Origin: a virus
Taxonomy: Duplodnaviria; Heunggongvirae; Uroviricota; Caudoviricetes
Reading direction: 5' to 3' (one strand)
Virus record (IMG/VR): IMGVR_UViG_2657245664_000011
DNA length: 14,741 nt
Both the position numbers and the translations under genes were made by a program. The notes beneath the pieces were generated by a model. That model saw nothing but the letters and a program-made list of their open reading frames with translations, did no database searches and was not told the origin of the DNA. Position 1 is the stretch's first letter; the number at the start of each line of letters is the position of its first letter. Shown piece after piece: positions 1-14,741 of this stretch.

Positions 1-1053
1 TTACGGGGTAATGCCAACCGCTGCCGCCACTTTGTCGCCACTTGGCAGCGTTGCCAGAGGATTGAAACGGAGCGCCGTTTCTAGATGATCCGGTGCCAGA
101 TGTGCGTAACGCATAGTCATTTTTATATCGTGGTGTCCGAGAATTTTTTGTAAGGCCAGAATGTTTCCACCCGACATCATGAAGTGCGCCGCAAACGTAT
201 GGCGCAGAACGTGTGTGAGTTGACCGCGAGGGAGCACGATAGACGTTTTTTCCATCACGGATAAAAATTGAAAATAGCAGTCTGTGAAGAAATTGAACCC
301 ATCAAGCGCCATGATCTCTTCGTAAAGCTCTTTACTGATAGGGATGCTTCTGTTTTTCTTCCCCTTCGTTCTGACAAAGGTAATTCGGTATTTGGTCACC
401 TGTGAGCGGGTAAGATTTACGGCTTCACGCCAGCGTGCGCCTGTGCTTAAGCATATCTTAACTACCAGTGCCAGAATTGGGTCCTGACGTTTGCAATCAG
501 CCAGCAATTCAACAATCTGCTCATGGGTAAGCCATGCCATCTCTTTTTCTGCGATGGTGAATTTTCGCATGTTCTCCAGTGGGTTCGGATACGACCATTC
601 GCCCAGACGGGATAGTTCGCTAAAAACACTACTTAGATAGCTTTGCTCCAGGTTAATGGTGACCGGGCTTGCTCCTTTCTTCCATTTCTCGCTGAAGTAG
701 ATCTCGCCTGTCAGGCGTTTATCTCGATAGTGGGCAAACATTTTAGAGGTGAGATCGGTTGCAAGAGGATTGCCCAGAGCGTCAACCATCAACAGCAATT
801 TGTCATAGACATGCTGCCCAGCTGTCAGAGATTTACCATGTAGTTTGAACCATAGCTCAACCACGTCTTTCAGTGTTCGACGATCCACTGATTCACCCAG
901 CCAGGGCTTTGCTTCGGTTTCTTCCATCGTGTGGCGCTCAAAAGCCAGTGCTTCGCCTTTGGTGGCGAATTGTTTACGCACACGACGCCCACTTCGTCCG
1001 GCGGGGTAACATTCGCAAAGCCATTTCCCTGTGGTTAGTTTTCGTACTGCCAT
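1..1053 (-). CDS. int: Tyrosine site-specific integrase, P2/186 family
   Basis: 350-aa ORF whose C-terminal region carries the tyrosine-recombinase signature (LRHTFA ... GHHDIKMTMRYAHL, with the catalytic Tyr). It sits at the prophage end, co-oriented with the repressor. The stop codon is at positions 1-3, so the gene is complete. Confidence 0.9.
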   Translation of the reverse strand: MAVRKLTTGKWLCECYPAGRSGRRVRKQFATKGEALAFERHTMEETEAKPWLGESVDRRTLKDVVELWFKLHGKSLTAGQHVYDKLLLMVDALGNPLATDLTSKMFAHYRDKRLTGEIYFSEKWKKGASPVTINLEQSYLSSVFSELSRLGEWSYPNPLENMRKFTIAEKEMAWLTHEQIVELLADCKRQDPILALVVKICLSTGARWREAVNLTRSQVTKYRITFVRTKGKKNRSIPISKELYEEIMALDGFNFFTDCYFQFLSVMEKTSIVLPRGQLTHVLRHTFAAHFMMSGGNILALQKILGHHDIKMTMRYAHLAPDHLETALRFNPLATLPSGDKVAAAVGITP

Positions 1054-1080
1054 AAAAAGCCCTCATATCAGAGGGCTAAA
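1054..1080 (-). terminator. Hairpin followed by a T-run immediately upstream of the int ATG; candidate intrinsic terminator for the cargo gene and/or an RBS-sequestering structure
   Basis: On the minus strand the sequence reads AGCCCTC-TGATAT-GAGGGCT-TTTTT-ATG (7-bp stem, 6-nt loop, T5). The GAGGG in the 3' arm is also the only plausible Shine-Dalgarno for int. Confidence 0.35.
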
Positions 1081-1135
1081 TTTAACTGTATATGTAACCA
1101 GTAATCAATGTGTGATTACTATGAAACATACATTG

Positions 1136-2812
1136 CTAAGCAACATGTAGTTCATCGTTGGCGGAAGTGGCTGCTTTGCGCTCCTGCTCAATAGCTAGAG
1201 ACTCTCTATATTCTTTCGCCTCTGCAAACATTGTCCAGTGGGCGTTGATGTTCATGTCTTCAATAACTGATTTGATTTCTTTTAAATTTACGTTAAAAAA
1301 CTCTTTTCGTGAGTTAATTTTATTGACCTGCTTTTCGTTGAAAACTTTATGCAGATGGTTTTCTAATGATGGTGCATCATCACTATAAATCATCGCATGA
1401 ACATCGAACGAAAAAGGAACACTAGCATCTCCGAGTTCACGAACACGATCAAGTGGTTCAAGGCGGCGTGTCATTCCAATTTTATATACATCTTCGCCAA
1501 ATGAACCAATATTACTAATGATATAGACGTGGCCTGATCTGGTTTGTTGAGCCATAGAAATAGCTCGTTGATTTTTAGCTTCAGCTTCTTCATATTTTAA
1601 CTGTAGTTCAGCTATTTTTTGCTCTAAAGCTAAGCGTTGTTCTTCATTTGCAAGCATAAGTTCTTTCGTTGCTTTATTTATAGCTTGCTGAATAGCTTTT
1701 TCTTCTTTTTCAGCTTCTTTTATCGCTTTTTCATATTCTCTACGAGCTCTTTCCTCTTCACGAAGCTGTTCTTTAATCCTTCTTTGCTCTTCTTTTTCTT
1801 CGAGCATAATTTCATTAACTGCTACACCCCATTTTAGCTCGTTGAGTCTTGCCTGAAGATAGATGTCACTTATTTTTGCGGACCTAAAGGCAGAGCCATT
1901 GTAATTTACTAGTTGAAATGCATCTTTTATTTCTTGGGAAAGTTTTCCAAAATTGTTGTGTTTGACTTTTGATAAAATACTGTCAACTCTTCCATTGAAG
2001 GCATCCAAAACAAAGTTTATGGCAGTATTACGCCTGTTTTGCTCAACATAATCACACGAAGCAGCTTTATTAGTTTTTATTAATGATTTGGTTAACTCTC
2101 TGGCTTTTTGTAATTCCTTGCCTGCATCTGTAAATTCATAATTTTCTGCCAGCTCATCAAGTACACTACGGTTAGGGATGATCCATTCATCACCATAACC
2201 TTCAATTTTATTTTTCATTGATTTTGCAACTGCTTCATATTTTTCTGCAAACTCTTTAGCTTCATATGCTGAACCAGCAATCTCCTTTGCTCTTTCTTCT
2301 GCATCAGAAATAATTTTTACTGCATTGTCATTAGCATTTGAGATTAGCTCATTTGCTTTATTATTAGCATTATCAAGACGTTCTTTGGCTTTCAGGCGTG
2401 CATCGCGAGCGTCTTTGGTGATTGCTATAGCTTCGCTATTAGCGTTGCTTATTGTCATCTGAGCTTGATAATTTGCTTCGTTTACTGTTTTAGCCGCCTT
2501 AATTTGGGCTTCATCTATTTTTTGCTTGGCTATTGAGTCCGCATTTTTTATCTTATTCTCTGCATCCATTACTGCGCTGTGCAATTCTTCGTATTGCCAC
2601 AATGGTGCTGCTCGCCCTTCAAGCTCTGATAATTCTCGTACGGTCTGTGCTAGTTTTTCTTGATTTTCAATCAGTTGGTTAGAAAGGGCTATGTTGTTAG
2701 CTGTCAGGTTATCTATAGCCGCTTTGTGTTTTTTACTTTGTTTAAATAATATTACAGCTAGAACAGGGGCGAGAAATGCTAATAAGAGTATAACGATGGC
2801 AAATGAATTCAT
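1136..2812 (-). CDS. Prophage cargo protein: N-terminal transmembrane anchor, long coiled coils, a central DUF4041-like region and a C-terminal T5orf172/GIY-YIG-like domain; candidate defense or exclusion factor
   Basis: 558-aa ORF with an AAGGA ribosome-binding site 7 nt upstream of the ATG. The N-terminus (FAIVILLLAFLAPVLAVILF) is a hydrophobic helix. Long K/E/A/N-rich heptad-like stretches follow. The C-terminus (GHVYIISNIGSFGEDVYKIGMTRRLEPLDRVRELGDASVPFSFDVHAMIYSDDAPSLENHLHKVFNEKQVNKINSRKEFFNVNLKEIKSVIE) matches the T5orf172 pattern as I recall it. The gene is visibly more AT-rich than the flanking phage genes. Confidence 0.8.
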   Translation of the reverse strand: MNSFAIVILLLAFLAPVLAVILFKQSKKHKAAIDNLTANNIALSNQLIENQEKLAQTVRELSELEGRAAPLWQYEELHSAVMDAENKIKNADSIAKQKIDEAQIKAAKTVNEANYQAQMTISNANSEAIAITKDARDARLKAKERLDNANNKANELISNANDNAVKIISDAEERAKEIAGSAYEAKEFAEKYEAVAKSMKNKIEGYGDEWIIPNRSVLDELAENYEFTDAGKELQKARELTKSLIKTNKAASCDYVEQNRRNTAINFVLDAFNGRVDSILSKVKHNNFGKLSQEIKDAFQLVNYNGSAFRSAKISDIYLQARLNELKWGVAVNEIMLEEKEEQRRIKEQLREEERARREYEKAIKEAEKEEKAIQQAINKATKELMLANEEQRLALEQKIAELQLKYEEAEAKNQRAISMAQQTRSGHVYIISNIGSFGEDVYKIGMTRRLEPLDRVRELGDASVPFSFDVHAMIYSDDAPSLENHLHKVFNEKQVNKINSRKEFFNVNLKEIKSVIEDMNINAHWTMFAEAKEYRESLAIEQERKAATSANDELHVA

Positions 2813-2832
2813 TTTAAAATCCTTTTACTATA

Positions 2833-3429
2833 TTAATTCGAGACTATTGTACTTCTTATACAAGCAACCACTTCAATATCAGAAAATGCACATTCAAAGC
2901 TATTCTCTGCTGTTGTAATTTTAATCATTCCTTTAGGAAGCCTTGTGATTTTTCGAATGGAATAGGTTCCGTCGATATTGATTAACCAGTTTCCATCAAG
3001 TACTTCAGAAAATTTTTGATCACAAATGTATGTGACGAGTCCATCCTGAACAACAATTGGTGATGAAAGGTTTGCAGGAAGAAATGATGAATCGAAGACA
3101 TATGAACCGTCTTCAATCATTTTGCCTGCGGCAAGGCGAAACTTAACAAGCTCTTCTGTAGCTGCTGTCAGCGAGCTTTGCTTAAGGCCTTGTCCGGTAG
3201 TTAACCATTTGAGGGAGGTTCCTGTTTCAAGAGCACATTGGATTATCCAGTCAGCAGGAAATGTATCCCGCAAATACCTGTTCGCTAGTGTGCTTTTTGA
3301 TACTTCCAAGTGATCAGCTAAAGCCTGTCGTGTCGTAAAGCCATAGGCTTCGACTAATCGCTCAATCGCAGCCTTACCACCTTTATTGGGATTTATTTTG
3401 ATCTCACTTGGGTACTTTGATGTTGACAT
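2833..3429 (-). CDS. cI: CI-like immunity repressor (phage 186 CI type, N-terminal HTH plus C-terminal oligomerisation domain)
   Basis: 198-aa ORF divergent from apl/cII. The N-terminal pattern EAYGFTTRQALADHL...LANRYLR...CALETG..LKWLTTGQG is the 186 CI-type HTH as I recall it. Position and length are close to 186 CI. Confidence 0.8.
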   Translation of the reverse strand: MSTSKYPSEIKINPNKGGKAAIERLVEAYGFTTRQALADHLEVSKSTLANRYLRDTFPADWIIQCALETGTSLKWLTTGQGLKQSSLTAATEELVKFRLAAGKMIEDGSYVFDSSFLPANLSSPIVVQDGLVTYICDQKFSEVLDGNWLINIDGTYSIRKITRLPKGMIKITTAENSFECAFSDIEVVACIRSTIVSN

Positions 3430-3451
3430 ATCTCTTTTGCGATCCTAGTAT
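3423..3451 (+). promoter_or_regulatory. Candidate early lytic promoter pR (sigma70)
   Basis: TTGACA at 3423-3428, a 17-bp spacer, then TAGTAT at 3446-3451. It faces apl/cII and overlaps the cI start codon, consistent with a 186-type switch. Confidence 0.55.
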
Positions 3452-3458
3452 CAGTTTT

Positions 3459-3474
3459 GTACCCAATTGGGTAC
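3459..3474. promoter_or_regulatory. Perfect 16-bp palindrome GTACCCAATTGGGTAC at the predicted pR start; candidate operator for CI or Apl
   Basis: Exact dyad symmetry read directly from the sequence. A TTGGGTAC half-site recurs at 3408-3415. Confidence 0.45.
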
Positions 3475-3524
3475 TTGTCACGATTACTACAGGCTCACCA
3501 CAAGCCAATAGGAGATGTTGCATC

Positions 3525-3746
3525 ATGACCCCTAACATTTCAATAACTCTGAATACGCCACACGTCACAATCGAGCGTTATAGCGAACTTACTGGTCTTT
3601 CAATCGACACAATCAACGATATGTTGGCGGATGGTCGCATTCCTCGGCATCGTCTTCGTAAAGACAAGAAAAGAGAAAAGGTAATGATCAACCTTGCTGC
3701 TCTTACCGTTGATGCACTTACTGATTGCAATGTTGTATTCAACTAG
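3525..3746 (+). CDS. apl: Apl/Cox-like excisionase and transcriptional regulator
   Basis: 73-aa ORF that is the first gene rightward of the switch. A small basic protein with an HTH-like segment ([29 protein letters not shown]). The ATG at 3525 is preferred over the upstream TTG of the ORF track because that extension would run through the promoter and into cI. Confidence 0.7.
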
Positions 3747-3778
3747 TTCCATTTTGGGATACATCAGAGGTGTCGACC

Positions 3779-4288
3779 ATGTTTGATTACCAAGTTTCCA
3801 AACATCCACATTTTGATGAAGCCTGTCGTGCATTCGCACTGCGCCACAATCTGGTGCAACTGGCAGAACGTGCGGGCATGAATGTGCAGATTCTGCGGAA
3901 CAAGCTGAACCCAGCTCAACCTCATTTATTAACCGCACCAGAAATCTGGCTGCTTACCGATCTGACTGAAGATTCAACGTTGGTAGATGGTTTTCTGGCA
4001 CAGATTCATTGTCTGCCATGTGTACCGATTAATGAGGTAGCAAAAGAGAAACTGCCGCATTACGTCATGAGCGCAACTGCAGAGATCGGGCGTGTTGCAG
4101 CAGGTGCGGTATCTGGTGATGTAAAAACTAGTGCCGGTCGTCGTGATGCTATCAGCAGCATTAACTCTGTAACACGACTGATGGCTCTGGCTGCTGTTTC
4201 ATTGCAAGCCCGTTTACAGGCTAATCCTGCGATGGCGAGTGCAGTTGATACCATGACTGGCCTTGGTGCTTCATTCGGTTTGCTGTGA
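3779..4288 (+). CDS. cII: CII-like activator of lysogeny establishment (186 CII type)
   Basis: ATG at 3779 with an AGAGG ribosome-binding site 8 nt upstream gives a 169-aa product starting [21 protein letters not shown], which closely resembles 186 CII as I recall it and matches its length. Confidence 0.8.
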
Positions 4289-4295
4289 GGTGTTT

Positions 4296-4592
4296 ATGCT
4301 GACGAAAGAACCATCATTTGCATCGCTGCTGGTAAAACAAAGCCCGGCAATGCACTACGGTCACGGCTGGATCACGGGTGAGGATGGAAAACGCTGGCAT
4401 CCATGTCATTCACAAGATGAATTGCTGTCTGAATTGACCACGAGGAAACGGAGAAAGTCCAAATGTATGCGGCAGAAAGTGAAGTGGTTTATCAGTTTCG
4501 TTACAGAGGGGAGAGTTATTCAGTACCTGAAGGTGATTTGCTCTGTTGCTATCCGTCATTGTCGGGCGATGGCAGTTACTTTTTCACGTTAA
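4296..4592 (+). CDS. Hypothetical early protein in the fil/dhr position
   Basis: ATG at 4296 with a GAGG ribosome-binding site. The N-terminal half looks protein-like, while the Cys/Arg-rich C-terminal third overlaps the next ORF and may not be translated as drawn. Confidence 0.4.
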   Translation: MLTKEPSFASLLVKQSPAMHYGHGWITGEDGKRWHPCHSQDELLSELTTRKRRKSKCMRQKVKWFISFVTEGRVIQYLKVICSVAIRHCRAMAVTFSR

Positions 4593-4687
4593 AGGATGGG
4601 ACGTTTTTACGGGGAGAGCAGGTTAAAGAGACGATACGAAAAAATGTATCTCCTCTTGAGCGTTACCGTAAGAACAAAGAACGATAG
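4463..4687 (+). CDS. Hypothetical early protein
   Basis: 74-aa ORF with a GGAG ribosome-binding site and natural-looking composition. It overlaps the preceding ORF by about 130 nt in another frame. Confidence 0.5.
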   Translation: MYAAESEVVYQFRYRGESYSVPEGDLLCCYPSLSGDGSYFFTLKDGTFLRGEQVKETIRKNVSPLERYRKNKER

Positions 4688-4709
4688 CTGCGTTTGGGGG
4701 ATATGAAGT

Positions 4710-5051
4710 ATGGCAATTAATGGCGCTGCAGCAACTGTTCCATTAAGCCCCGGTGAACGCCTGAATGGACTTAATCACATTGCGGAGTTAAGGGCGAAAG
4801 TTTTTGGCCTGAATATTGAGTCAGAGCTTGAGCGGTTTATTAAAGATATGCGTGATCCACGGGATATCAATAATGAACAAAATAAACGGGCACTGGCTGC
4901 CATATTCTTTATGGCAAAAATTCCAGCTGAACGTCATAGCATCAGCATTAATGAGCTGACCACTGACGAAAAGCGGGAGCTGATTAAAGCAATGAATCAT
5001 TTTCGTGCAGTGGTGAGCTTATTTCCCAGACGGCTAACCATGCCGAATTAA
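4710..5051 (+). CDS. Hypothetical early protein
   Basis: 113-aa ORF co-oriented in the early operon with a G-rich ribosome-binding site upstream. Confidence 0.55.
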   Translation: MAINGAAATVPLSPGERLNGLNHIAELRAKVFGLNIESELERFIKDMRDPRDINNEQNKRALAAIFFMAKIPAERHSISINELTTDEKRELIKAMNHFRAVVSLFPRRLTMPN

Positions 5052-5118
5052 CCAACTAATGAAATTAATGGCGTAAACCCGCCGGGCATCCCTTTATCTA
5101 AATTCAGGAGAATTGATT

Positions 5119-5352
5119 ATGCGTAATATTGAAACCCTCACGACTAAAACCGGACCGGATGACGCAGGGCTTAATATTTTACTGACAGAGGCTCGTCTGG
5201 AAGAACGCCGGGCAAGGGCTGAAGCAATGGCTGCTCGCCTTGATAGCCTGGCGTGTCATATCTCATCCCGCCAGCTAAACCACGTGGAAGCGGCAGAACT
5301 GCTGCGCGTGACTGCTGAAGCAATCCAGAACGAAGCGCAGGAGATCCACTAA
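5119..5352 (+). CDS. Hypothetical early protein
   Basis: AGGAG ribosome-binding site 8 nt upstream of the ATG at 5119. Its stop overlaps the next start (TAATG), suggesting translational coupling. Confidence 0.5.
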   Translation: MRNIETLTTKTGPDDAGLNILLTEARLEERRARAEAMAARLDSLACHISSRQLNHVEAAELLRVTAEAIQNEAQEIH

Positions 5353-5579
5353 TGGCTGATGCAATGGATCTCGTACAGCAGCGCGTTGAAGAAGAACGCC
5401 AGCGCCATATCCGTGCAGCCCGTGCCAAATCACCGGGCGTGTCACGCGTACTTTGCATTGAATGTGAAGCGCCAATTCCGCCAGCACGACGCCGCGCCAT
5501 TCCGGGAGTGCAGCTTTGCATTACCTGTCAGGAAATCGCAGAACTGAAAGGCAAACATTACAACGGAGGTGCTGTATGA
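5352..5579 (+). CDS. TraR/DksA-family C4 zinc-finger protein
   Basis: 75-aa ORF with CIECEAPIP...CITCQ, two CxxC pairs at the spacing typical of phage TraR-like proteins. Confidence 0.7.
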   Translation: MADAMDLVQQRVEEERQRHIRAARAKSPGVSRVLCIECEAPIPPARRRAIPGVQLCITCQEIAELKGKHYNGGAV

Positions 5580-6433
5580 GCACCATCCTGAAATGGGCGG
5601 GAAATAAAACCGCCATTATGCCAGAACTGAAAAAATACCTTCCTGCTGGCCCGCGACTGGTTGAACCTTTCGCGGGTTCCTGTGCTGTGATGATGGAAAC
5701 GGATTATCCCAGCTATCTGGTTGCGGATATTAATCCTGATTTAATCAACCTCTATAAAAAGGTTGCCGCTGATTGTGAATCGTTTATATCTCGCGCCAGA
5801 GTTTTATTTGAGATCGCAAACAGGGAGGTGGCTTATTACAACATAAGGCAGGAGTTTAACTGCTCAACTGAAATTACTGATTTCATGAAAGCGGTATATT
5901 TCCTGTATCTCAATCGTCACGGTTACCGTGGTTTATGTCGCTATAACAAGAGCGGGCATTTCAACATTCCCTACGGTAATTATAAAAATCCGTATTTCCC
6001 TGAAAAAGAACTTCGCACATTTGCAGAAAAAGCCCAGCGAGCAACGTTTATCTGCGCCAGCTTTGATGAAACGCTGGCGATGTTGAAGGCGGGAGATGTG
6101 GTGTATTGCGATCCGCCATATGACGGTACGTTTTCCGGCTATCACACTGATGGTTTCACTGAAGATGACCAGTATCACCTGGCATCCGTTCTTGAACATC
6201 GGTCATCAGAAGGACATCCGGTCATTGTTTCTAACAGTGACACATCCCTGATCCGTTCGCTGTATCGCAATTTTACTCACCACTATATCAAGGTAAAACG
6301 CAGCATCGGTGTGGCAGCTGGCGAGGGTAAATCAGCAACAGAAATCATTGCTGTTTCCGGGCCGCGCTGCTGGATGGGATTTGATTATTCGCGTGGCGTG
6401 GATAGTTCTGCCGTGTACGGAGTACGTGCATGA
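5576..6433 (+). CDS. dam: Dam-family N6-adenine DNA methyltransferase (orphan, phage-encoded)
   Basis: ATG at 5576 with a GGAGG ribosome-binding site. Carries ILKWAGNK, an AdoMet-binding motif (EPFAGSCAV) and the catalytic DPPY. Start and stop overlap the neighbours as ATGA, so it is translationally coupled between the TraR-like gene and gene A. Confidence 0.85.
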
Positions 6434-7956
6434 GTCATGCCGATATGAACAACTGCTGCGGCTTTAACGAGGCTGCCGCAGCATTCTCATGGAACAGCCC
6501 GAAAAAGGCCATTAACCCTTATCTGGACCCGGCGGAAGTTGCGCCGGTTTCTACGCTTTCAAACCTGATCACTCTGTACGCTGCCGATAACGAGCAGGAA
6601 CAGTTGCGCCGCGAGGCACTGAGTGATCAGGTCTGGGAGCGTTATTTCTTTAATGAATCACGTGATCCTGTCCAGCGCGAAATGGAGCAGGATAAGCTCA
6701 TTAGCCGGGCAAAGCTGGCGCATGAGCAGCAGCGTTTTAATTCAGACATGGTCATTCTGGCGGACGTCAACGCCCAGCCTTCCCATATCAGCAAGCCGCT
6801 GATGCAACGTATTGAATACTTCAGCAGCCTGGGCAGGCCAAAGGCTTATTCCCGCTATTTACGTGAGACGATTAAGCCATGTCTGGAACGACTGGAGCAT
6901 GTACGCGACAGTCAGCTATCTGCATCTTTTCGCTTTATGGCAAGCCATGAAGGGCTGGACGGCCTGCTGATCCTGCCTGAAATGAGTCAGGATCAGGTGA
7001 AACGCCTGTCCACCTTGGTAGCTGCGCATATGAGTATGTGCCTTGATGCAGCTTGTGGTGATTTGTATGCCACCGATGACGTTAAGCCAGAAGAAATCCG
7101 CAAGACATGGGAAAAGGTGGCAGCGGAAACCCTGCGTCTGGATGTCATCCCACCTGCGTTTGAGCAACTCCGTCGGAAAAGAAACCGCCGTAAACCCGTG
7201 CCGTATGAACTCATTCCGGGTTCGCTGGCGCGTATGTTGTGCGCCGACTGGTGGTATCGGAAATTATGGAAGATGCGTTGCGAATGGCGGGAAGAGCAGT
7301 TGCGCGCTGTTTGCCTGGTCAGCAAAAAAGCATCTCCTTATGTCAGCTATGAAGCCGTGATGCATAAACGTGAGCAGCGCCGTAAGTCGCTGGAGTTTTT
7401 CCGTTCTCATGAACTGGTGAACGAAGACGGCGACACGCTGGACATGGAGGATGTGGTAAACGCCAGCAGCAGCAACCCTGCGCATCGCCGCAATGAGATG
7501 ATGGCCTGTGTTAAAGGTCTGGAGCTTATCGCGGAAATGCGCGGTGACTGCGCCGTTTTCTACACTATCACCTGTCCGTCGCGTTTCCATTCCACGCTAA
7601 ATAACGGCAGACCAAACCCGACCTGGACAAACGCGACGGTAAGACAAAGCAGCGATTATCTGGTCGGCATGTTTGCTGCATTTCGTAAGGCGATGCACAA
7701 AGCCGGGTTGCGCTGGTATGGCGTGCGGGTGGCTGAGCCGCATCATGATGGCACAGTTCACTGGCACCTGTTGTGTTTCATGCGCAAAAAAGACCGCCGT
7801 GCCATCACTGCATTACTGCGTAAGTTTGCCATCCGTGAAGACCGCGAGGAGCTGGGCAATAACACTGGGCCGCGCTTTAAGTCTGAGTTGATTAAGCACT
7901 GTGTGTCAGGCTGGATGGCGTGGAAAAATAGGTTTGTCGCCATTTTTTGTGAATAG
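6430..7956 (+). pseudogene. A: Replication initiation endonuclease gpA (rolling-circle HUH type), C-terminally truncated
   Basis: 508-aa ORF containing the HUH motif (TVHWHLLCF). It ends in a short atypical tail that overlaps the inverted terminase fragment. P2/186 A proteins are about 700-760 aa, so the C-terminal part is missing. Confidence 0.75.
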
Positions 7957-8764
7957 CCATACCGGAAGCCACTTTGCGCAGCTCCTGGAATTTCGGTATC
8001 CAGAAATATTCATCCAGATACAGGTTGCCGTGGTAACTCTGGGCCGTGCGGGCATTGGTGCCGAGGAAGTACAGCGTGGCCCCGTTAGGAAGCACCATCG
8101 GATCGCCTTTCAGCTCCACCTCCACTTCTTTGGCGAAGTCGATGATGTACTGCTTAAAGACGTGGGCCTGAGCCTTGCTGGCGGAAAGGAAAATCTGGTT
8201 ACGCCCGGTTAGCAGGGCGTCAATCAGGGCTTCACGGGCAAAATAGAAGGTCGCGCCGATCTGGCGTGACTTCAGCAGGTTGCGGATGCGGTTGGTTTTT
8301 CCGGCTTCCCACCAGTGGCGCTGGTAGTTGAACATGGAGGAATGGAAGATTTCTTCCAGCTTCTCAATCTGTTCATCGGTGAAAACGTTCTTTTCCGGCT
8401 GACGGCGCGGGCCTTTGTTGCGGTTGGCGACGTTAGGGTTTAAGTCGGCTTCGTTGCCGCCATTGTTAAACTTGCCGATCCGCGCATGGCGCTCCGACTG
8501 GCGCGCCAGCAGGTCAATCTCTTTGAAATCTTTCCCTTCTTTGTGCTCCTTCATAATGAGCTGGCAGTAGCGTGCGGCGGTGGTGAGCTGCATCTGATCC
8601 AGCGGCCCATAGTCACCCCACTTGTCGCGTTTTTTCCAGCTGTGAACGGTTGCAACTTTCTCGCCCAGCATTTCAGCAATGCGGGCTACGCGGTATCCCT
8701 GAAAGTACAGCAGCATGGCCTGCCGACGGGGATCGAGATCTGCGGGTGTCAGTGTGGTGTTCAT
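7892..8764 (-). pseudogene. P: Terminase ATPase (large subunit) gpP, N-terminal fragment only
   Basis: 290-aa ORF with P2 gpP-like N-terminus and Walker-type motifs ([24 protein letters not shown]). A full gpP is about 590 aa, and the nuclease half is absent. Its orientation is opposite to gene A, as in P2. Confidence 0.8.
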
Positions 8765-8813
8765 GGCACAAACCTACAGCCTTGAATGAAGGCTTTCCCC
8801 GCCTGCGGTTTGT

Positions 8814-9998
8814 GTGGTTGCGGGTTTACTTACTGCACCGTTGTCATCTTTGCGCCGCACGGCATCACTGACGGGAAATGTCATGAAAACTGTAGCAGGT
8901 GCGCCGGTTGCACTTTTGCGGTCTGGATTATCCGGTTTACGTGCTGTTGCTGTGATGTTTATGAATCCTCTGGCGGTACTGCGCGGTGGACTGGTCGCCG
9001 CAGGCACGGTGCTGCGAGTACTGGCATCTGGTCCACTGGCGATGCTGCGCGTTGCCCTGTATGCCGTATCTGGTCTGTTAGGTGCTCTGCTCAGTCCGAT
9101 AGGTCTTGTGGTTACTGCACTGGCGGGCGTGGCGCTGGTTGTCTGGAAATACTGGCAACCCATCACCGCATTTCTTGGTGGCGTGGTGGAAGGATTCAAA
9201 GCGGCGGCAGGTCCCGTCAGTGCAGCATTCGAACCACTTAAGCCTGTGTTTCAGTGGATTGGCGACAAAGTGCAGGCGCTCTGGGGCTGGTTTACTGATC
9301 TGCTGACGCCCGTTAAGTCGACCTCTGCCGAACTGCAGAGCGCAGCGGCAATGGGGCGACGATTCGGGGAGGCACTGGCGGAAGGGCTGAATATGGTTAT
9401 GCATCCGCTGGACTCCCTGAAATCTGGCGTTTCCTGGTTGCTGGATAAACTCGGCATTGTCAGTAAAGAGGCTGCAAAGGCGAAACTGCCGGAAAGCGTG
9501 ACGCGTCAGCAACCTGCGACGGTGAATGCAGACGGTAAAGTGATGATGCCATCGGGTGGTTTTCCGTCATGGGGATATGGCTTTGCGGGGATGTATGACA
9601 GCGGCGGCTATATCCCGCGTGGGCAGTTTGGCATCGTCGGTGAAAACGGGCCGGAAATTGTTAACGGCCCGGCAAATGTGACCAGCCGGAGAAATACAGC
9701 TGCACTGGCTGCCGTTGTTGCCGGAATGATGGGCGTTGCTGCCGCGCCAGCAGAGCTTCCACCGTTGCACCCTTTGGCACTTCCCGCGAAAGGTGGAGAA
9801 GCAATTGTGAGTCGCGCAGCCACTGTGCCGCTCGTTCAACGGATTGAGGCACCGACGCAGATCATCATTCAGACGCAGCCAGGACAAAGTGCGCAGGATA
9901 TTGCGCGGGAGGTGGCACGCCAGCTTGATGAACGTGAACGCAGGCTGAAGGCAAAAGCCAGGAGTAACTACAGCGATCAGGGGGGATACGACGCATGA
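8814..9998 (+). pseudogene. T: Tail tape measure protein gpT, C-terminal fragment
   Basis: 394-aa G/A/L-rich ORF whose stop overlaps the gpU start (ATGA). The frame opens only at 8790, a few bases from the terminase fragment start, and the first possible start is a GTG. P2 gpT is about 815 aa. Confidence 0.7.
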
Positions 9999-10480
9999 TG
10001 ATGGTGCTGGGATTGTACGTGTTTATGCTGCGCACCGTTCCGTATCAGGAACTGCAGTATCAACGCAGCTGGCGACATGCGGCAAACAGCCGGGTAAACC
10101 GTCGTCCGTCCACGCAGTTTCTGGGACCGGAAAACGACATGCTGACGCTTTCCGGTGTTCTTATGCCGGAGATAACAGGCGGCAGGCTGTCGTTGCTGGC
10201 ACTGGAGCAGATGGCAGAACAGGGGAAAGCATGGCCCCTGATTGAAGGCAGCGGCACGATTTACGGCATGTATGTGATTGAGGGACTGAATCAGACTAAA
10301 ACGGAGTTTTTCCGCGACGGTATGCCGCGCAGGATTGAGTTCACCCTTTCGCTAAAACGGGTGGATGAATCCCTGTCCGATATGTTCGGTGATCTCAGTA
10401 CTCAACTGAATAATCTGCAGGACACGGCAACGTCTGCCTTAAGCGATATCAGTAAAACGGTGGGAGGGCTGCTGTCGTGA
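9995..10480 (+). CDS. U: Tail protein gpU
   Basis: 161-aa ORF in the T-U-D order, coupled to T upstream and D downstream. Its size matches P2 gpU. Confidence 0.85.
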   Translation: MMMVLGLYVFMLRTVPYQELQYQRSWRHAANSRVNRRPSTQFLGPENDMLTLSGVLMPEITGGRLSLLALEQMAEQGKAWPLIEGSGTIYGMYVIEGLNQTKTEFFRDGMPRRIEFTLSLKRVDESLSDMFGDLSTQLNNLQDTATSALSDISKTVGGLLS

Positions 10481-11577
10481 ATTTCAGCTCTGAACTGCTT
10501 AACAAAGGAAACAAAACTCCCGCATTCAGCATCAGTATTGAGGGGAAGGATATCACCACTGTGCTGGATAACCGCCTGATGAGTCTGACGCTGACGGACA
10601 ATCGGGGCTTTGAAGCGGACCAACTTGATCTGGAGCTGGACGACGCCGACGGAAAAATCGTGCTGCCGCGCCGTGGTGCGGTCATTACGCTGGCGCTGGG
10701 CTGGAAGGGGCAGCCGCTTTTCCCGAAAGGGGCATTCACGGTGGACGAGATTGAACACACTGGCGCACCGGACCGCCTGACTATCCGGGCGCGAAGTGCT
10801 GATTTTCGGGAAACGCTGAATACCCGCCGTGAAAAATCGTGGCATAACACCACCATCGGGGAAGTGGTGAAGGAAATAGCCGCGCGGCACAAGCTGAAGA
10901 TGGCACTGGGTAAAGACCTGTCGGATAAGCCCGTGGAGCATATAGACCAGACTAATGAGAGTGACGGCAGTTTTTTGATGCGGCTGGCGCGCCAGTACGG
11001 TGCCATTGCATCGGTGAAAAATGGCAATCTGTTATTCATCCGGCAGGGACAGGGCAAAAGCGCCAGCGGTAAACCACTGCCGGTGATTACTATCACACGT
11101 AAGGACGGCGACAGTCACCGCTTTACCCTGGCAGATCGCGGAGCTTACACGGGGGTAATTGCCAGCTGGTTGCATACCCGCGAACCCGCGAAGAAAGAAA
11201 GCACTACGGTGAAGCGTAAGCGCAGGACTAAGAAGCAGAAGAAAGAGCCGGAAGCGAAGCAGGGCGATTACCTGGTGGGGACGGATGAAAACGTGCTGGT
11301 ACTTAATCGCACTTATGCCAACCGGAGCAACGCTGAACGGGCAGCGAAAATGCAGTGGGAACGCCTGCAACGCGGCGTTGCGTCATTCTCGCTACAACTG
11401 GCGGAAGGGCGGGCAGATCTCTACACGGAAATGCCAGTGAAAGTCAGTGGCTTTAAACAGCCGATAGATGATGCGGAATGGAGCATTACGACTCTGACGC
11501 ATACCGTCAGCCCGGATAACGGTTTTACGACCAGTCTGGAGCTTGAAGTGAGGATTGATGATTTCGAAATGGAATGA
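10477..11577 (+). CDS. D: Tail protein gpD
   Basis: 366-aa ORF with a GTG start overlapping the U stop. It occupies the P2 D position immediately before ogr. Confidence 0.85.
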   Translation: MNFSSELLNKGNKTPAFSISIEGKDITTVLDNRLMSLTLTDNRGFEADQLDLELDDADGKIVLPRRGAVITLALGWKGQPLFPKGAFTVDEIEHTGAPDRLTIRARSADFRETLNTRREKSWHNTTIGEVVKEIAARHKLKMALGKDLSDKPVEHIDQTNESDGSFLMRLARQYGAIASVKNGNLLFIRQGQGKSASGKPLPVITITRKDGDSHRFTLADRGAYTGVIASWLHTREPAKKESTTVKRKRRTKKQKKEPEAKQGDYLVGTDENVLVLNRTYANRSNAERAAKMQWERLQRGVASFSLQLAEGRADLYTEMPVKVSGFKQPIDDAEWSITTLTHTVSPDNGFTTSLELEVRIDDFEME

Positions 11578-11667
11578 TTCTTCGCAATGGAGAACTTTTA
11601 AGTTTGCAAAATGGAATAATGCGGTATCATTATTGTGAATTTAGCAAAAATGGGGAGAACTCGAAAA

Positions 11668-11886
11668 ATGATGATTTGCCCACTGTGTGGAAGTGCCGCC
11701 CATACTCGCAGCAGTTTTCAGGTATCTTCATTGACCAAAGAGCGTTACAACCAGTGCCAGAACATTAACTGCAGCCATACTTTTGTTACCCATGAAACTT
11801 TTGTTCGTTCGATTGCAACGCCAAAAGAGTCAAATCCGGTTCAGCCGCATCCAATGAAATCAGGACAGGTGGCGCTCTCTCTTTGA
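11668..11886 (+). CDS. ogr: Ogr/Delta-family zinc-finger late transcription activator
   Basis: 72-aa product MMICPLCGSAAHTRSS...QCQNINCSHTF with the CxxC-(22)-CxxxxC arrangement of P2 Ogr and 186 B. A GGGGAG ribosome-binding site lies upstream. Confidence 0.85.
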   Translation: MMICPLCGSAAHTRSSFQVSSLTKERYNQCQNINCSHTFVTHETFVRSIATPKESNPVQPHPMKSGQVALSL

Positions 11887-11972
11887 CGCTGCCGCCATTT
11901 TGTCGCCATCGTTAAAAAACAGTGCTTCTAACATCATGATTTTAAACAGCATAAATTTCAGGCAACAAAAAA

Positions 11973-12009
11973 CCCATCAACCTTGAACCGAAATGGCGGG
12001 GTTGATGGG
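11973..12009. other. Inverted repeat CCCATCAACC / GGTTGATGGG (10-bp stem, 17-nt loop) in the ogr-ybjL intergenic region; possible terminator or part of attR
   Basis: Read directly from the sequence. It lies between convergent ogr (+) and ybjL (-) at the expected prophage-chromosome boundary. Confidence 0.3.
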
Positions 12010-12121
12010 CTCCACAAAATGGGGACATCAAAGAAAAGCAGTGGCACTAATTAAGACTGATGCCCTGCGGAAAAGTTCTGCGGTTGTGCAAAAAAATTTC
12101 ATTTTCAGGGCAACTTCAGTT

Positions 12122-13807
12122 TTATCCTAATCCTGGCCATACCATGACGATGATTGTCCCTGCCAGCGTCAGCAGGACGTTGGCGATTGCATAGGTGCCC
12201 GCATAGCCCAGCGCCGGGATGTTACTGCGAGCTGTATCACTGATGATCTCCATTGCCGGCGCGCAGGTACGTGCGCCCATCATTGCGCCGAACAACAGCG
12301 CGCGGTTCATTCGCAATACATAAGCACCGAACAAGAAACAGATAACCACGGGCACCAGACTGACAATCAATCCGGCAATCAACATCTGACCGCCAATCGC
12401 GCCCAGGCCGTTATTAATACCGCTACCGGCGCTCAGACCAACGCCTGCCATAAACACCATCAAGCCGAACTCTTTCACCATGCTTAATGCACCCTGCGGA
12501 ATGTAACCGAAGGTCGGGTGGTTAGCACGCATAAAGCCCAGCATAATTCCGGCGAATAACAACCCGGCAGCGTTCCCCATGCCGAAACTGAATGTGCTGA
12601 ACTGGAAGGTGATCATCCCGATCATCAGCCCAATAACAAAGAAGGCGCAGAATGCCAGCAGGTCAGTGACCTGGCTGTGAATCGAGATAAAGCCGATGCG
12701 ATCGGCGATGGTTTTTACGCGGCGGGCATCGCCGCTGACTTGTAAAACGTCACCTTTGTTAAGCACGACGTTGTCATCTATCGGCATCTCAATCTGGCTA
12801 CGAATGACGCGGTTAAGGAAGCAACCGTGATCGGTCAACTTCAGTTGTGCGAGACGTTTACCTACAGCGTTATGGTTTTTAACGACCACTTCTTCAGTGA
12901 CGATACGCATGTCGAGAAGGTCACGATCGAAAACTTCTTTACCGTTACGGAAGCTGGGATCGAGTCGGGCATGGGCGTCGGGATAGCCTACCAACGCTAT
13001 TTCATCGCCCATTTGTAGCACGGCATCACCGTCTGGATTTGCCAGAATCCCGTTACGTCGAATACGTTCAATGTAGCAGCCGGTTTGTCGATAAATACCC
13101 AGTTCACGCAGATTTTTGCCGTCGGTCCAGGCCACCAGTTCCGGGCCGACGCGATAGGCGCGGATCACCGGTAAATAAACCTTACGGTTGGCATCAGTGT
13201 CCAGGCCACGTTCGCGGGCGATTTGCTGGGCGCTGGTCTGTAAGTCCTGATGCTGCAATTTCGGCAAGTAACGCGCACCAACAATCAAACTCACCAGACC
13301 GATTAAATAGGTTAAGGCATACCCGAGGCTCAGATTATCCAGTGCCAGTGAGAGCTGCCTGCTTTCCATGCCGGAATGACGCAGTGTATCGCCAGCACCG
13401 ACCAGAACCGGTGTCGACGTCATAGAGCCTGCTAACATACCGGCCGTCAGGCCAATATCCCAGCCAAACAGCTTACCTAACCCTAAGGCGATCACCAGCG
13501 CACTGCCAACCATCACCAGTGCTAACATTAGGTAATTTTTCCCATCGCGAAAAAAAATGGAAAAAAAGTTCGGTCCGGCTTCGACCCCGACGCAGAAAAT
13601 AAACAGCATAAAGCCAAGATTAAGCGCATCGGTGTTAATGCTGAAATGTTGTTGGCCTAATAACAGCGATACGACTAAAACGCCAATGGAATTACCCAGT
13701 TGGATCGAACCAAGTCGTAACTTTCCGAGACATAGCCCAAGCGCGAGGACCACAAATAATAACAGAATGTAATTCCCATTTAACAATTCGGCGACGTTTA
13801 TATTCAC
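12122..13807 (-). CDS. ybjL: Putative transport protein YbjL (AAE-family permease with TrkA-C-like domains)
   Basis: 561-aa polytopic membrane protein whose sequence matches E. coli YbjL as I recall it. Neighbour order ybjL-ybjM-grxA matches the E. coli chromosome. Confidence 0.9.
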
Positions 13808-14076
13808 GGAGGCTAACTTCTTGTTTACTAGTAAGCTGTTGAAAGAAATGGTAATTTACGATAATGTTTTTTACCAGAATTCAGGGCGCAGATTCATTCA
13901 GCGCACCTAAACGATAGTAAAGTAACAATATATTTTACTAGTGTAATCACATTAGGTATCAACGGCTATATGAATTGCGTTGGCCTATATTAGCATGGAA
14001 TGCGAAGCGGCTTTATCTTACTGAACGCCACACTGGCGAAAAATGTGTTCGATAGACGCAGTGTCAGGAGGAACGA

Positions 14077-14454
14077 GTGAAACATAAACAACGTTGGGCG
14101 GGGGCAATCTGCTGTTTTGTCCTCTTCATTGTGGTGTGCCTTTTTCTGGCGACGCACATGAAAGGCGCTTTTCGGGCTGCCGGGCATCCTGAAATCGGCT
14201 TGCTATTTTTCATTCTTCCTGGAGCAGTCGCCAGCTTCTTTTCACAGCGTAGAGAAGTCCTGAAACCTCTGTTTGGCGCAATGCTGGCGGCACCCTGTTC
14301 GATGCTCATTATGCGGCTGTTTTTTTCACCGACGCGCTCATTCTGGCAAGAGCTGGCATGGTTACTAAGCGCGGTGTTCTGGTGTGCGCTGGGGGCACTG
14401 TGTTTCTTATTTATCAGTAGTTTGTTTAAACCACAGCACAGAAAAAATCAGTAA
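14077..14454 (+). CDS. ybjM: Inner membrane protein YbjM
   Basis: 125-aa hydrophobic ORF with a GTG start and an AGGAGG ribosome-binding site 5 nt upstream. Conserved position between ybjL and grxA. Confidence 0.8.
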   Translation: MKHKQRWAGAICCFVLFIVVCLFLATHMKGAFRAAGHPEIGLLFFILPGAVASFFSQRREVLKPLFGAMLAAPCSMLIMRLFFSPTRSFWQELAWLLSAVFWCALGALCFLFISSLFKPQHRKNQ

Positions 14455-14474
14455 AGCCCTCAACGCGAGGGCTT
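14454..14474. terminator. Bidirectional intrinsic terminator hairpin between convergent ybjM and grxA
   Basis: AAGCCCTC-AACGC-GAGGGCTT (8-bp GC-rich stem, 5-nt loop) with A/T runs on both sides. Confidence 0.5.
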
Positions 14475-14483
14475 GTCAGACGA

Positions 14484-14741
14484 TCAGGCGTCCAGATTTT
14501 CTTTCACCCATGCAGCAAAATCGGTATAGCCGCCGATATGTTGCTGATCGACAAAAATCTGCGGCACGGTTTCTACGGGTTTACCTGCCTTTTGTTGTAG
14601 ATCTTCTTTAGTGATCCCTTCCGCACGAATATCTACATACTGATACTGAAAATCATCGCGTTCATTGCTCAATTTCTCAGCCAGATCTTTTGCACGCACA
14701 CAGTAAGGGCAACCCGAACGACCAAAAATAACGGTTTGCAT
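14484..14741 (-). CDS. grxA: Glutaredoxin 1
   Basis: 85-aa ORF MQTVIFGRSGCPYCVRAKDLAEKLS... with the CPYC active site, matching E. coli GrxA. It starts exactly at the window end. Confidence 0.95.
   Translation of the reverse strand: MQTVIFGRSGCPYCVRAKDLAEKLSNERDDFQYQYVDIRAEGITKEDLQQKAGKPVETVPQIFVDQQHIGGYTDFAAWVKENLDA

Follow-up and report, generated by a model that had tools for sequence, protein, structure and literature searches.

A twice-deleted 186-like prophage at the Escherichia coli rybB gene carries a SNIPE-like gene between cI and int

Results

A 186-like prophage remnant at rybB

We analyzed a stretch of 14,741 nucleotides (nt) from IMG/VR record IMGVR_UViG_2657245664_000011 (hereafter the window), positions 1-11977 of which comprise the remnant of a phage-186-like prophage (P2 family, Peduoviridae). 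The remnant is set in the 3' end of the rybB small RNA (sRNA) gene, between rcdA and ybjL. It has been gutted at two deletion junctions, J1 and J2, and between its repressor gene cI and its integrase gene int it carries a gene for a 558-amino-acid (aa) protein (the cargo gene), whose predicted product resembles the anti-phage nuclease SNIPE (PD-lambda-1). The layout (Table 1) is based on the open reading frame (ORF) map, Pfam scans and the RefSeq annotation of an identical sequence in Escherichia coli CPE35, all of which agree on a single arrangement. Using BLAST, the window was mapped onto both the CPE35 locus (L001) and KP12 (L003; OM835953), a complete 34.8-kb relative.

By Pfam, the gene set and order, i.e., int, cI, apl, cII, fil ... 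A ... P ... T, U, D and ogr together with att sites, are those of a 186-like phage, and the DNA shares 96-100% identity with full-length prophages as well as with the records of phages KP12 and 813R9. The genome is not complete, with ~22 kb of ~34.8 kb gone: A is cut short, and cos, Q, the genes O to G, and the lysis, sheath and tube genes are absent.

The 14-bp core AACAAAAAACCCAT found at attR is also present in the attL of CPE35 on the rcdA side (L001 2913-2926) and in the attP of KP12. The attL site lies 75-88 nt to the left of window position 1, placing the left end of the element outside the window. As the core doubles as the terminator end of rybB, this phage family inserts into the sRNA gene and restores its sequence at attR. 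A reading made from the sequence alone had drawn the prophage from 1 to 12010; the remnant itself was confirmed, with its right border moved to 11977, as positions 11964-12042 are host rybB. No tRNA genes were found in the window. The ogr-attR-ybjL junction was present in 1,105 of 5,426 complete E. coli genomes (~20%) and the attL junction in 961, both counts being confounded by int-side structural variants.

Table 1. Features of the window, by position.
Feature	Position	Strand	Remarks
Tyrosine integrase gene int, 350 aa, intact	1-1053	-	Pfam Int_N and Phage_integrase; no internal stops
Hairpin and T-run	1058-1077	-	AGCCCTC-tgatat-GAGGGCT-TTTT-ATG; between cargo gene and int, abuts int start codon
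Cargo gene, 558 aa	1136-2812	-	Between cI and int
CI immunity repressor gene, 186-type, 198 aa, intact	2833-3429	-	Pfam Phage_CI_repr and Phage_CI_C
Switch region cI-apl	3430-3524		Layout by analogy with 186 pR/pL
Early lytic operon, all genes intact	3525-6433	+	Pfam; RefSeq annotation of identical CPE35; integrity table
apl/cox-like gene	3525-3746	+
cII	3779-4288	+
fil	4296-4592	+
DUF5347 gene	4710-5051	+
DUF2732 gene	5119-5352	+
TraR/DksA-like gene	5352-5579	+
Dam methylase gene	5576-6433	+
Replication endonuclease gene A, truncated	6430-7956	+	Codons 1-489 of 804, then ~20 unrelated codons past J1; Pfam Phage_GPA
Terminase ATPase gene P, N-terminal 290 codons	7892-8764	-	Stop codon made by J1; Pfam Terminase_5 and Terminase_6N
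Deletion junction J1	7893-7895		A-to-P fusion; 3-bp microhomology; 5,945 bp lost relative to CPE35 (L001 10896-16840)
Stretch upstream of P, 59 nt	8765-8823		Ends at J2
Deletion junction J2	8823		59 nt upstream of P start codon joined to interior of tape-measure gene T
Tape-measure gene T, C-terminal fragment	8824-9998	+	RefSeq pseudogene in CPE35; mapped to KP12
Tail gene U, intact	9995-10480	+	Pfam Phage_P2_GpU; no late promoter left
Tail gene D, intact	10477-11577	+	Pfam Phage_GPD; no late promoter left
ogr/B-type zinc-finger late-gene activator gene, 72 aa, intact	11668-11886	+	Pfam Ogr_Delta, E 6.7e-22
attR core	11964-11977		Right end of element; 14-bp direct repeat
rybB host sRNA gene	11964-12042	-	Rfam RF00110, 105.3 bits, full length 1-79
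Host flank	12122-14741		RefSeq on identical sequence; Pfam
ybjL	12122-13807	-
ybjM	14077-14454	+
grxA	14484-14741	-

Two junctions account for the lost genes

Direct alignments at 100% identity defined two exact junctions which together account for the ~22 kb lost, in agreement with the sequence-only reading of a gutted prophage. Window positions 1-7895 correspond to L001 3001-10895 and positions 7893-14741 to L001 16841-23689. J1 thus joins codon 489 of the 804 codons of the replication gene A to the interior of the terminase gene P on the opposite strand. In CPE35, the interval between these two points holds the C-terminal part of A, a small ORF, a DinI/Tum-like gene, four cargo ORFs of the A/Q slot, a cos-like sequence, the portal gene Q and the C-terminal part of P. 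J2 was placed on KP12, to which window positions 7893-8823 align at 15688-14757 and positions 8823-11977 at 33387-30233. This deletion took ~16.2 kb, i.e., the genes O to G, the S/V and G/FI (Z/fun) cargo slots, FI, FII, E and the N-terminal part of T.

Both cargo loci that had been claimed as missing, tin/old and Z/fun, were therefore indeed lost, the A/Q slot within the J1 interval and the S/V and G/FI slots within that of J2. In relatives, these three slots carry variable cargo, including retrons, OLD-like nucleases, DprA/PRTase, PcfJ, an acyltransferase and an invertase. The A/Q slot of CPE35, the form from which the window remnant would directly derive (L001 12567-14135), was removed by J1 and encodes a 297-aa protein matching the PADLOC candidate PDC-S42 (E 8.8e-44), as well as two small ORFs; defence cargo in general was thus not spared.

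The functions needed for a lytic cycle were lost at the same two places. The sole LexA-box-like site of CPE35, CTGTAAATATAAACAG (L001 11939-11954), lies just upstream of the small ORF and of the DinI-like gene, whose 77-aa product shares 41% identity with the phage 186 Tum antirepressor and occupies the matching position; a site scan found no LexA box in the window. The 186 cos region matched L001 14206-14300, within the J1 interval, and had no match in the window. A presumed P2/186 cohesive-end sequence gave no match in either the window or CPE35 at up to three mismatches. By protein alignment, the 186 replication origin maps to codon 676 of A (L001 ~11455), inside the deleted interval. Late promoters of the P2 family are recognized by their activator at sites of the pattern TGT-N12-ACA. 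Such a dyad, which was compared with the B-protein site annotated in phage 186 (U32222), is present in the P/O intergenic region of the intact relative STEC383, and J2 cuts through it. This divergent P/O dyad is the only activator dyad surviving in the remnant, and it is broken.

With the LexA box and Tum-like gene, cos, the predicted origin and the late-promoter dyad all lost, the remnant has been deprived of induction, replication, packaging, morphogenesis, lysis and intact late promoters, and we infer that it is not SOS-inducible. A satellite-like or still-mobilisable element was considered and rejected, as cos is gone.

The repressor, integrase, 558-aa cargo protein, early regulators, Dam and Ogr had all been called intact, and their lengths proved equal to those in full-length relatives, as did those of U and D. 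The integrase is identical to WP_000290937, the same protein as in the full-length STEC383 prophage, and the ogr DNA is identical to the copies in many relatives.

The cargo gene encodes a predicted SNIPE-family nuclease

That the int-proximal cargo is a gene of the defence type was supported by a match to the PADLOC PD-Lambda-1 (SNIPE) profile PDLC03976 (400.7 bits, E 2.4e-120), in which residues 106-550 of the protein covered profile positions 36-481 of 491. Pfam placed a DUF4041/SNIPE domain (PF13250, 46.6 bits against a cut-off of 27) at residues 267-322, and the assembly collection labels the same gene PF13250:SNIPE. A nuclease domain of the GIY-YIG type (T5orf172 and MUG113) was found at residues 427-520.

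PD-lambda-1 was found in E. coli ECOR26 as a 1,503-nt gene (PMC9519451). SNIPE is an inner-membrane-anchored GIY-YIG nuclease that cleaves the DNA of lambda and other siphoviruses during injection, and its activity requires both the DUF4041 domain and residue E414 (PMC13190303). It is anchored N-out, C-in, its contacts with either the tape-measure protein or the injection machinery allowing it to cut DNA and protect the cell (PMC13190303). As a stand-in for the ECOR26 protein, we used a SNIPE-type protein of equal length (500 aa) from E. coli MP1, which matched the PD-Lambda-1 profile end to end (659 bits). The cargo protein was 50% identical to it across the C-terminal 293 aa, and E484 of the cargo protein aligned opposite its residue 414, inside the shared motif APSLE, pointing to E484 as the likely counterpart of the SNIPE catalytic residue. 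At its N-terminus, the cargo protein has a predicted transmembrane helix (residues ~4-23; mean Kyte-Doolittle hydropathy 3.16 over residues 4-22, MNSFAIVILLLAFLAPVLAVILF) followed by KQSKKHK, and hydropathy prediction gave an equal pattern of hydrophobic helix and basic residues for the 500-aa homologue. The overall architecture is thus a predicted transmembrane helix, a coiled-coil region, DUF4041/SNIPE and T5orf172/MUG113. The MP1 gene itself (L015 2984-6393) is situated in a lambdoid prophage, where it lies between the ren and nin regions, beside an HD-domain gene.

The N-terminal ~264 residues of the cargo protein could not be aligned with the 500-aa SNIPE-type protein, which bears on its target range. 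No NCBIfam model names the cargo protein, the sole match being DivIVA-like, weak and far below the cut-off, and a protein search for distant relatives did not place the N-terminal region, its best 120 matches all being close 558-aa orthologues. Among SNIPE homologues, the N-terminal region is highly variable and has been proposed to act as an adaptor setting specificity (PMC13190303). On the basis of the PADLOC match, the DUF4041 and T5orf172/MUG113 domains, the conserved Glu and the N-terminal helix, we conclude that the predicted protein is a SNIPE family member whose N-terminal region is different. Cleavage of siphovirus DNA at injection is accordingly a prediction for the 558-aa variant.

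The 558-aa form is well conserved: orthologues from Citrobacter, Salmonella, Klebsiella, Enterobacter and other genera are 83-85% identical and do not vary in length. No experimental test of this variant was found in the searchable literature, where DUF4041 is mentioned only by the SNIPE papers. Purifying selection on the cargo gene, which had been put forward as a check, was confirmed among alleles of mostly full-length prophages: the ratio of nonsynonymous to synonymous substitution (dN/dS) was 0.045-0.063 at a dS of 0.20-0.29 (Nei-Gojobori), similar to that of int and D and below that of Dam. A ratio of ~0.05, together with the full-length copies in the population (see below), means that the gene is clearly functional in the phage lineage. 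Within the clone that carries J2, there was no cargo variation from which selection could be measured.

The cargo gene probably shares the lysogenic transcript

The GC content of the cargo gene (37.0%) and of cI (40.2%) is lower than the 47-55% of the rest of the element. Only 20 nt separate the cI stop codon from the cargo start; this gap contains an AAGGA ribosome-binding site, and a terminator scan found no terminator between the two genes. The first terminator-like hairpin after cI and the cargo gene is that at 1058-1077, the 3' arm of which covers the only Shine-Dalgarno-like sequence (GAGG) of int. Judging from this arrangement, the hairpin may have two roles, ending the cI-cargo transcript and hindering translation of int. 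In phage 186 (U32222), cI and int abut, and pL transcribes cI and then int in lysogens. By analogy with this layout, and given the 20-nt gap with its ribosome-binding site and the position of the first hairpin past the cargo gene, the latter is probably co-transcribed with cI in the lysogenic transcript. Among relatives, the cargo gene co-occurs with the present CI type, and other CI types have other genes in the same slot. In one otherwise full-length prophage, OkiPb01680 (L013 4698-5294), cI has a nonsense mutation at codon 79 and the tape-measure gene another, with the SNIPE-like gene intact.

A promoter scan of the switch region identified a pR-like promoter, TTGACA-17-TAGTAT, at 3423-3451. 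Just downstream is a perfect 16-bp palindrome, GTACCCAATTGGGTAC (3459-3474), and upstream is a half-site, TTGGGTAC (3408-3415); these are candidate CI operators. The 186 homologue of ogr, B, is directly repressed by CI (annotation U32222). A comparison of 10-mers common to the switch region and the ogr upstream sequence, allowing up to one mismatch, revealed no pR-type operator upstream of ogr. No intact target promoter is left for Ogr inside the remnant; it might trans-activate another P2-like phage or a P4-like satellite, as the sequence-only reading suggested.

J1 is private and J2 belongs to a very young clone

At a threshold of at least 94% identity, the cargo gene was present in 164 of the 5,426 complete E. 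coli genomes. It covered at least 80% of the query in 163 of these, one of which has a copy interrupted by an insertion sequence (IS); the remaining copy is truncated. Among six cargo-bearing loci that were sampled, five were full-length prophages of ~34-36 kb at the same site and the sixth was rearranged. In full-length STEC383, the Int, cargo and CI proteins are identical to those of the window. The exact cargo allele occurred in 4,753 blocks of a large assembly collection, beside many different A/Q cargo sets. Some 270 further complete E. coli genomes had only distant nuclease-domain matches to the cargo protein, which fell into the DUF4041 class of the 500-aa MP1 gene and a distinct class annotated "GIY-YIG nuclease family protein".

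J1 was found in none of the 5,426 complete genomes, and an exact-match scan returned it from no metagenome contig and no IMG/VR viral contig. An exact-protein look-up with the J1-specific A fusion protein retrieved one Logan contig, SRR16760876_208 (L018), which is 100% identical to the window. This contig starts 16 nt outside attL and stops 16 nt outside attR, which with the 14-bp core gives 30 nt, i.e., k-1 for k=31. As such spacing is the assembly-graph branch pattern of an empty attB, the SRR16760876 sample probably holds both occupied and empty sites, owing either to mixed strains or to excision by the intact int and apl.

J2 was present in one of the 5,426 complete genomes, that of CPE35, and in one IMG/VR contig identical to CPE35. 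The 371-aa truncated-T product of the J2 type was found in at least 146 blocks of the assembly collection, a count which repeat sequencing of one strain may have inflated and which concerns a product not strictly J2-specific, albeit one for which every context read showed the P fragment immediately preceding T, or else this arrangement inverted. The J2 carriers read differed from CPE35 by 0-1 nt over ~9-19 kb, and the window by none over 14.7 kb; one metagenome contig had 23 differences, all within the terminase fragment.

Within this J2 clone we found at least four independent structural variants: J1 itself (window and L018), a 6.8-kb deletion in which A is lost entirely (L020), a deletion of 3.0 kb from cII to A (L022), and an inverted T'-U-D' segment (L021). 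Gene A is hit by each of the three deletions and left untouched by the inversion. About 20 of the 24 J2-carrier contigs read keep the J2-only form, which retains an intact A, the predicted origin, the LexA box and the Tum-like gene. J1 was observed only alongside J2, while J2 occurred without J1 in CPE35, the IMG/VR contig and other assemblies; by parsimony, we infer that J2 preceded J1.

Another P/T junction of this locus (EC3 type) served as positive control and was common to 27 complete genomes, demonstrating that lineage-fixed remnants do occur at the rybB site. The EC3-type remnant (L008 13900-14300, and 26 genomes of varied sources) has another CI type and no SNIPE-like gene, and has kept a TIGR02391 gene in the A/Q slot. 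Decay is common at this locus, through many different junctions. In SCU-118 (L026, CP051716), int, the SNIPE homologue, cI, apl and ogr are all that remains; minimal remnants with a cII fragment within ~1 kb of ogr, which retain just the immunity-region arm and ogr, were found in at least 10 complete genomes, with several junction spacings.

Two of the phage records retrieved as relatives look mislabelled. Klebsiella phage KP12 clone KP12_3 (L003, OM835953) is filed under Vequintavirinae, yet it is a complete P2/186-like genome with 95-98% identity to the present prophage. The Escherichia phage record vB_EcoM-813R9 (L002, ON470620) has host genes on both sides of a prophage that is truncated at the tail-fibre gene.

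Discussion

We consider it likely that recent, stepwise prophage decay explains the remnant, with no need for selection on the remnant itself. The prophage was gutted by two illegitimate deletions at the level of microhomology. The probable first, J2, which a very young clone now carries, removed the lysis genes and the majority of the head and tail genes. The probable later one, J1, private to the strain, removed the C-terminus of A with the predicted origin, the LexA-controlled Tum-like module, the A/Q slot, cos, the portal gene and one half of the terminase gene. The resulting phage would be dead, i.e., incapable of SOS induction, replication, packaging, particle building or lysis. Its leftward lysogenic operon is probably still active, in which case CI would silence the early operon (fil etc.) and confer immunity to phages of the same immunity type, and the low-GC gene between cI and int, probably co-transcribed with cI, would produce a SNIPE-family membrane-anchored nuclease directed against incoming siphoviruses. 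The survival of int, the SNIPE homologue and cI would follow from their position at the end of the element, the internal nature of the deletions and the extreme youth of the remnant. Indeed, since the J2 clone is nearly SNP-free (SNP, single-nucleotide polymorphism), the survival of these three genes cannot be read as selection.

Some observations weigh against this account. The unalignable N-terminal region of the cargo protein may give it a target range of its own. None of the three secondary deletions that arose independently in the J2 clone touches int, the SNIPE homologue or cI, and even smaller remnants elsewhere keep the same arm, as selection would also yield; moreover, the number of blocks assigned to the clone may be too high. 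The arm-retaining remnants were, however, found with queries containing that arm, and the chance that three deletions all miss it is roughly 0.4. Recent neutral decay therefore remains our favoured explanation, possibly aided by selection against the residual replication module, and we regard domestication as possible but less probable.

Selection of this kind can also be placed at the center of the explanation. The J2 remnant would be SOS-inducible, and nicking and replication in place by A without lysis or packaging would be harmful, such that deletions of A, the origin and the Tum-like module were selected and the cI-cargo arm is a mere leftover. This would accord with the occurrence of at least four structural variants in a near-SNP-free clone, with the overlap of all three deletions (window/L018, L020 and L022) with A, and with the intact A, predicted origin, LexA box and Tum-like gene of the J2-only form. 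Nevertheless, we estimate that three deletions out of three would fall on A by chance in ~20% of cases, the fourth variant, the L021 inversion, misses A altogether, and ~20 of the 24 contigs read have retained the J2-only form. We hold this explanation to be possible, though on the unlikely side.

The sequence-only reading had proposed a domesticated remnant, in which selection on the host lineage would have preserved the immunity module along with the SNIPE-like gene while harmful phage functions were purged, the surviving genes being the product of selection. Part of this proposal stood. The cargo gene belongs to a validated defence family, is strongly constrained and is full-length in 163 of 164 complete genomes (the IS-interrupted copy included); J2 is common to a clone; three independent secondary deletions and minimal remnants such as that of SCU-118 all retain the arm; and another remnant at the same locus is present in 27 complete genomes. 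Sharing within a clone was found for J2 only, through the 146 blocks, and descent across a diverged host lineage was not found for either junction: J1 was absent from the 5,426 complete genomes and known from a single Logan contig besides the window, and J2 carriers differ by 0-1 SNP per ~19 kb, which leaves almost no time for differential survival. The remnant is thus essentially unique to its strain, as the proposal did not expect, whereas the cargo gene is not gathering inactivating mutations, as it did. Given that the dN/dS values derive mostly from full-length prophages, that signal reflects the phage lineage and not the remnant. In addition, J1 removed another candidate defence gene, PDC-S42, the supporting remnants were subject to the ascertainment bias noted above, and, as estimated from variant coordinates, three deletions would miss a 3.5-kb arm of an 18-kb element by chance in ~40% of cases. 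Domestication of the remnant is therefore unlikely.

A further explanation holds that the J2 clone is domestication in progress: a remnant unable to lyse, yet SOS-inducible and replication-competent, is being disarmed repeatedly and independently by deletions in A, the origin or the Tum-like module, the end state being a non-inducible, CI-locked cassette that permanently expresses a SNIPE variant. We consider this improbable; if true, the N-terminal adaptor of the variant might target other phages, or another injection route, than the characterised SNIPE. Finally, it is scarcely credible that one or both junctions are assembly artefacts masking a longer prophage in the strain, for although J1 was in no complete genome searched, J2 recurs in many assemblies besides a closed genome and an IMG/VR contig, J1 was reproduced at 100% identity in the Logan assembly of a public run, and its partners share 3 bp only, leaving no repeat to cause a mis-join.

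Under recent decay, the favoured explanation, each part of the locus is of a known kind: a known kind of defence gene, a known minor hotspot, a known phage family, and ordinary, very recent decay. The cargo protein resembles the 500-aa SNIPE of ECOR26 (PMC9519451, PMC13190303) in its three-part order of transmembrane helix with basic residues, DUF4041/SNIPE and T5orf172/GIY-YIG, in the correspondence of E484 to the catalytic E414, in its 50% identity over the C-terminal 293 aa and strong PADLOC match, and in being prophage-borne. It differs in length (558 versus 500 aa), in the unalignable, coiled-coil N-terminal ~264 residues with their weak DivIVA-like match, and in its location, the cI-int operon of a P2/186-like phage as opposed to the lambdoid prophage of the MP1 copy.

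Similarly, the remnant shares with coliphage 186 (U32222, Eganvirus) the leftward int and cI, the rightward apl, cII and fil, gene A, and a B/ogr activator gene near att; the LexA-controlled Tum-like gene is present in the CPE35 form and deleted in the window. Protein identities to 186 are 70% for CII, 56% for Int, 54% for B/Ogr and 32% for CI. Where cI and int abut in 186, however, a 1.7-kb low-GC defence gene and a hairpin are inserted here; immunity specificity and att site (rybB versus ileY in 186) also differ, and the present copy is ~22 kb short.

Defence hotspots of P2-like phages have been described at the A/Q (tin/old), Z/fun and tail-gene slots (PMC9122126, PMC9519451, PMC13586616), and a minor int-side hotspot has already been described as well. 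In the present case, the A/Q, Z/fun and tail-gene slots all fall inside J1 or J2 and only the minor int-side slot survives; those studies dealt mostly with complete elements, whereas this one is a remnant.

Defective or cryptic prophages are reportedly retained in bacterial genomes through decay and domestication, as Bobay and colleagues are said to have described in PNAS in 2014. The remnant resembles them in that internal deletions have stripped it of structural and lytic genes, leaving its ends and accessory genes in place, and in that many independent remnants occupy one att site. It differs in showing no sign of age, being identical in sequence to a less-deleted relative.

Taken together, the data describe a well-conserved 558-aa SNIPE subfamily across Enterobacteriaceae, situated in the cI-int lysogenic operon of 186-like phages. 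As its N-terminus differs from that of the characterised SNIPE, this subfamily offers a natural test of the idea that the N-terminus sets specificity. The J2 clone, in turn, provides near-isogenic natural strains which differ in the remnant left, and which could be used to set the cost of a half-dead prophage against the benefit of its defence gene.

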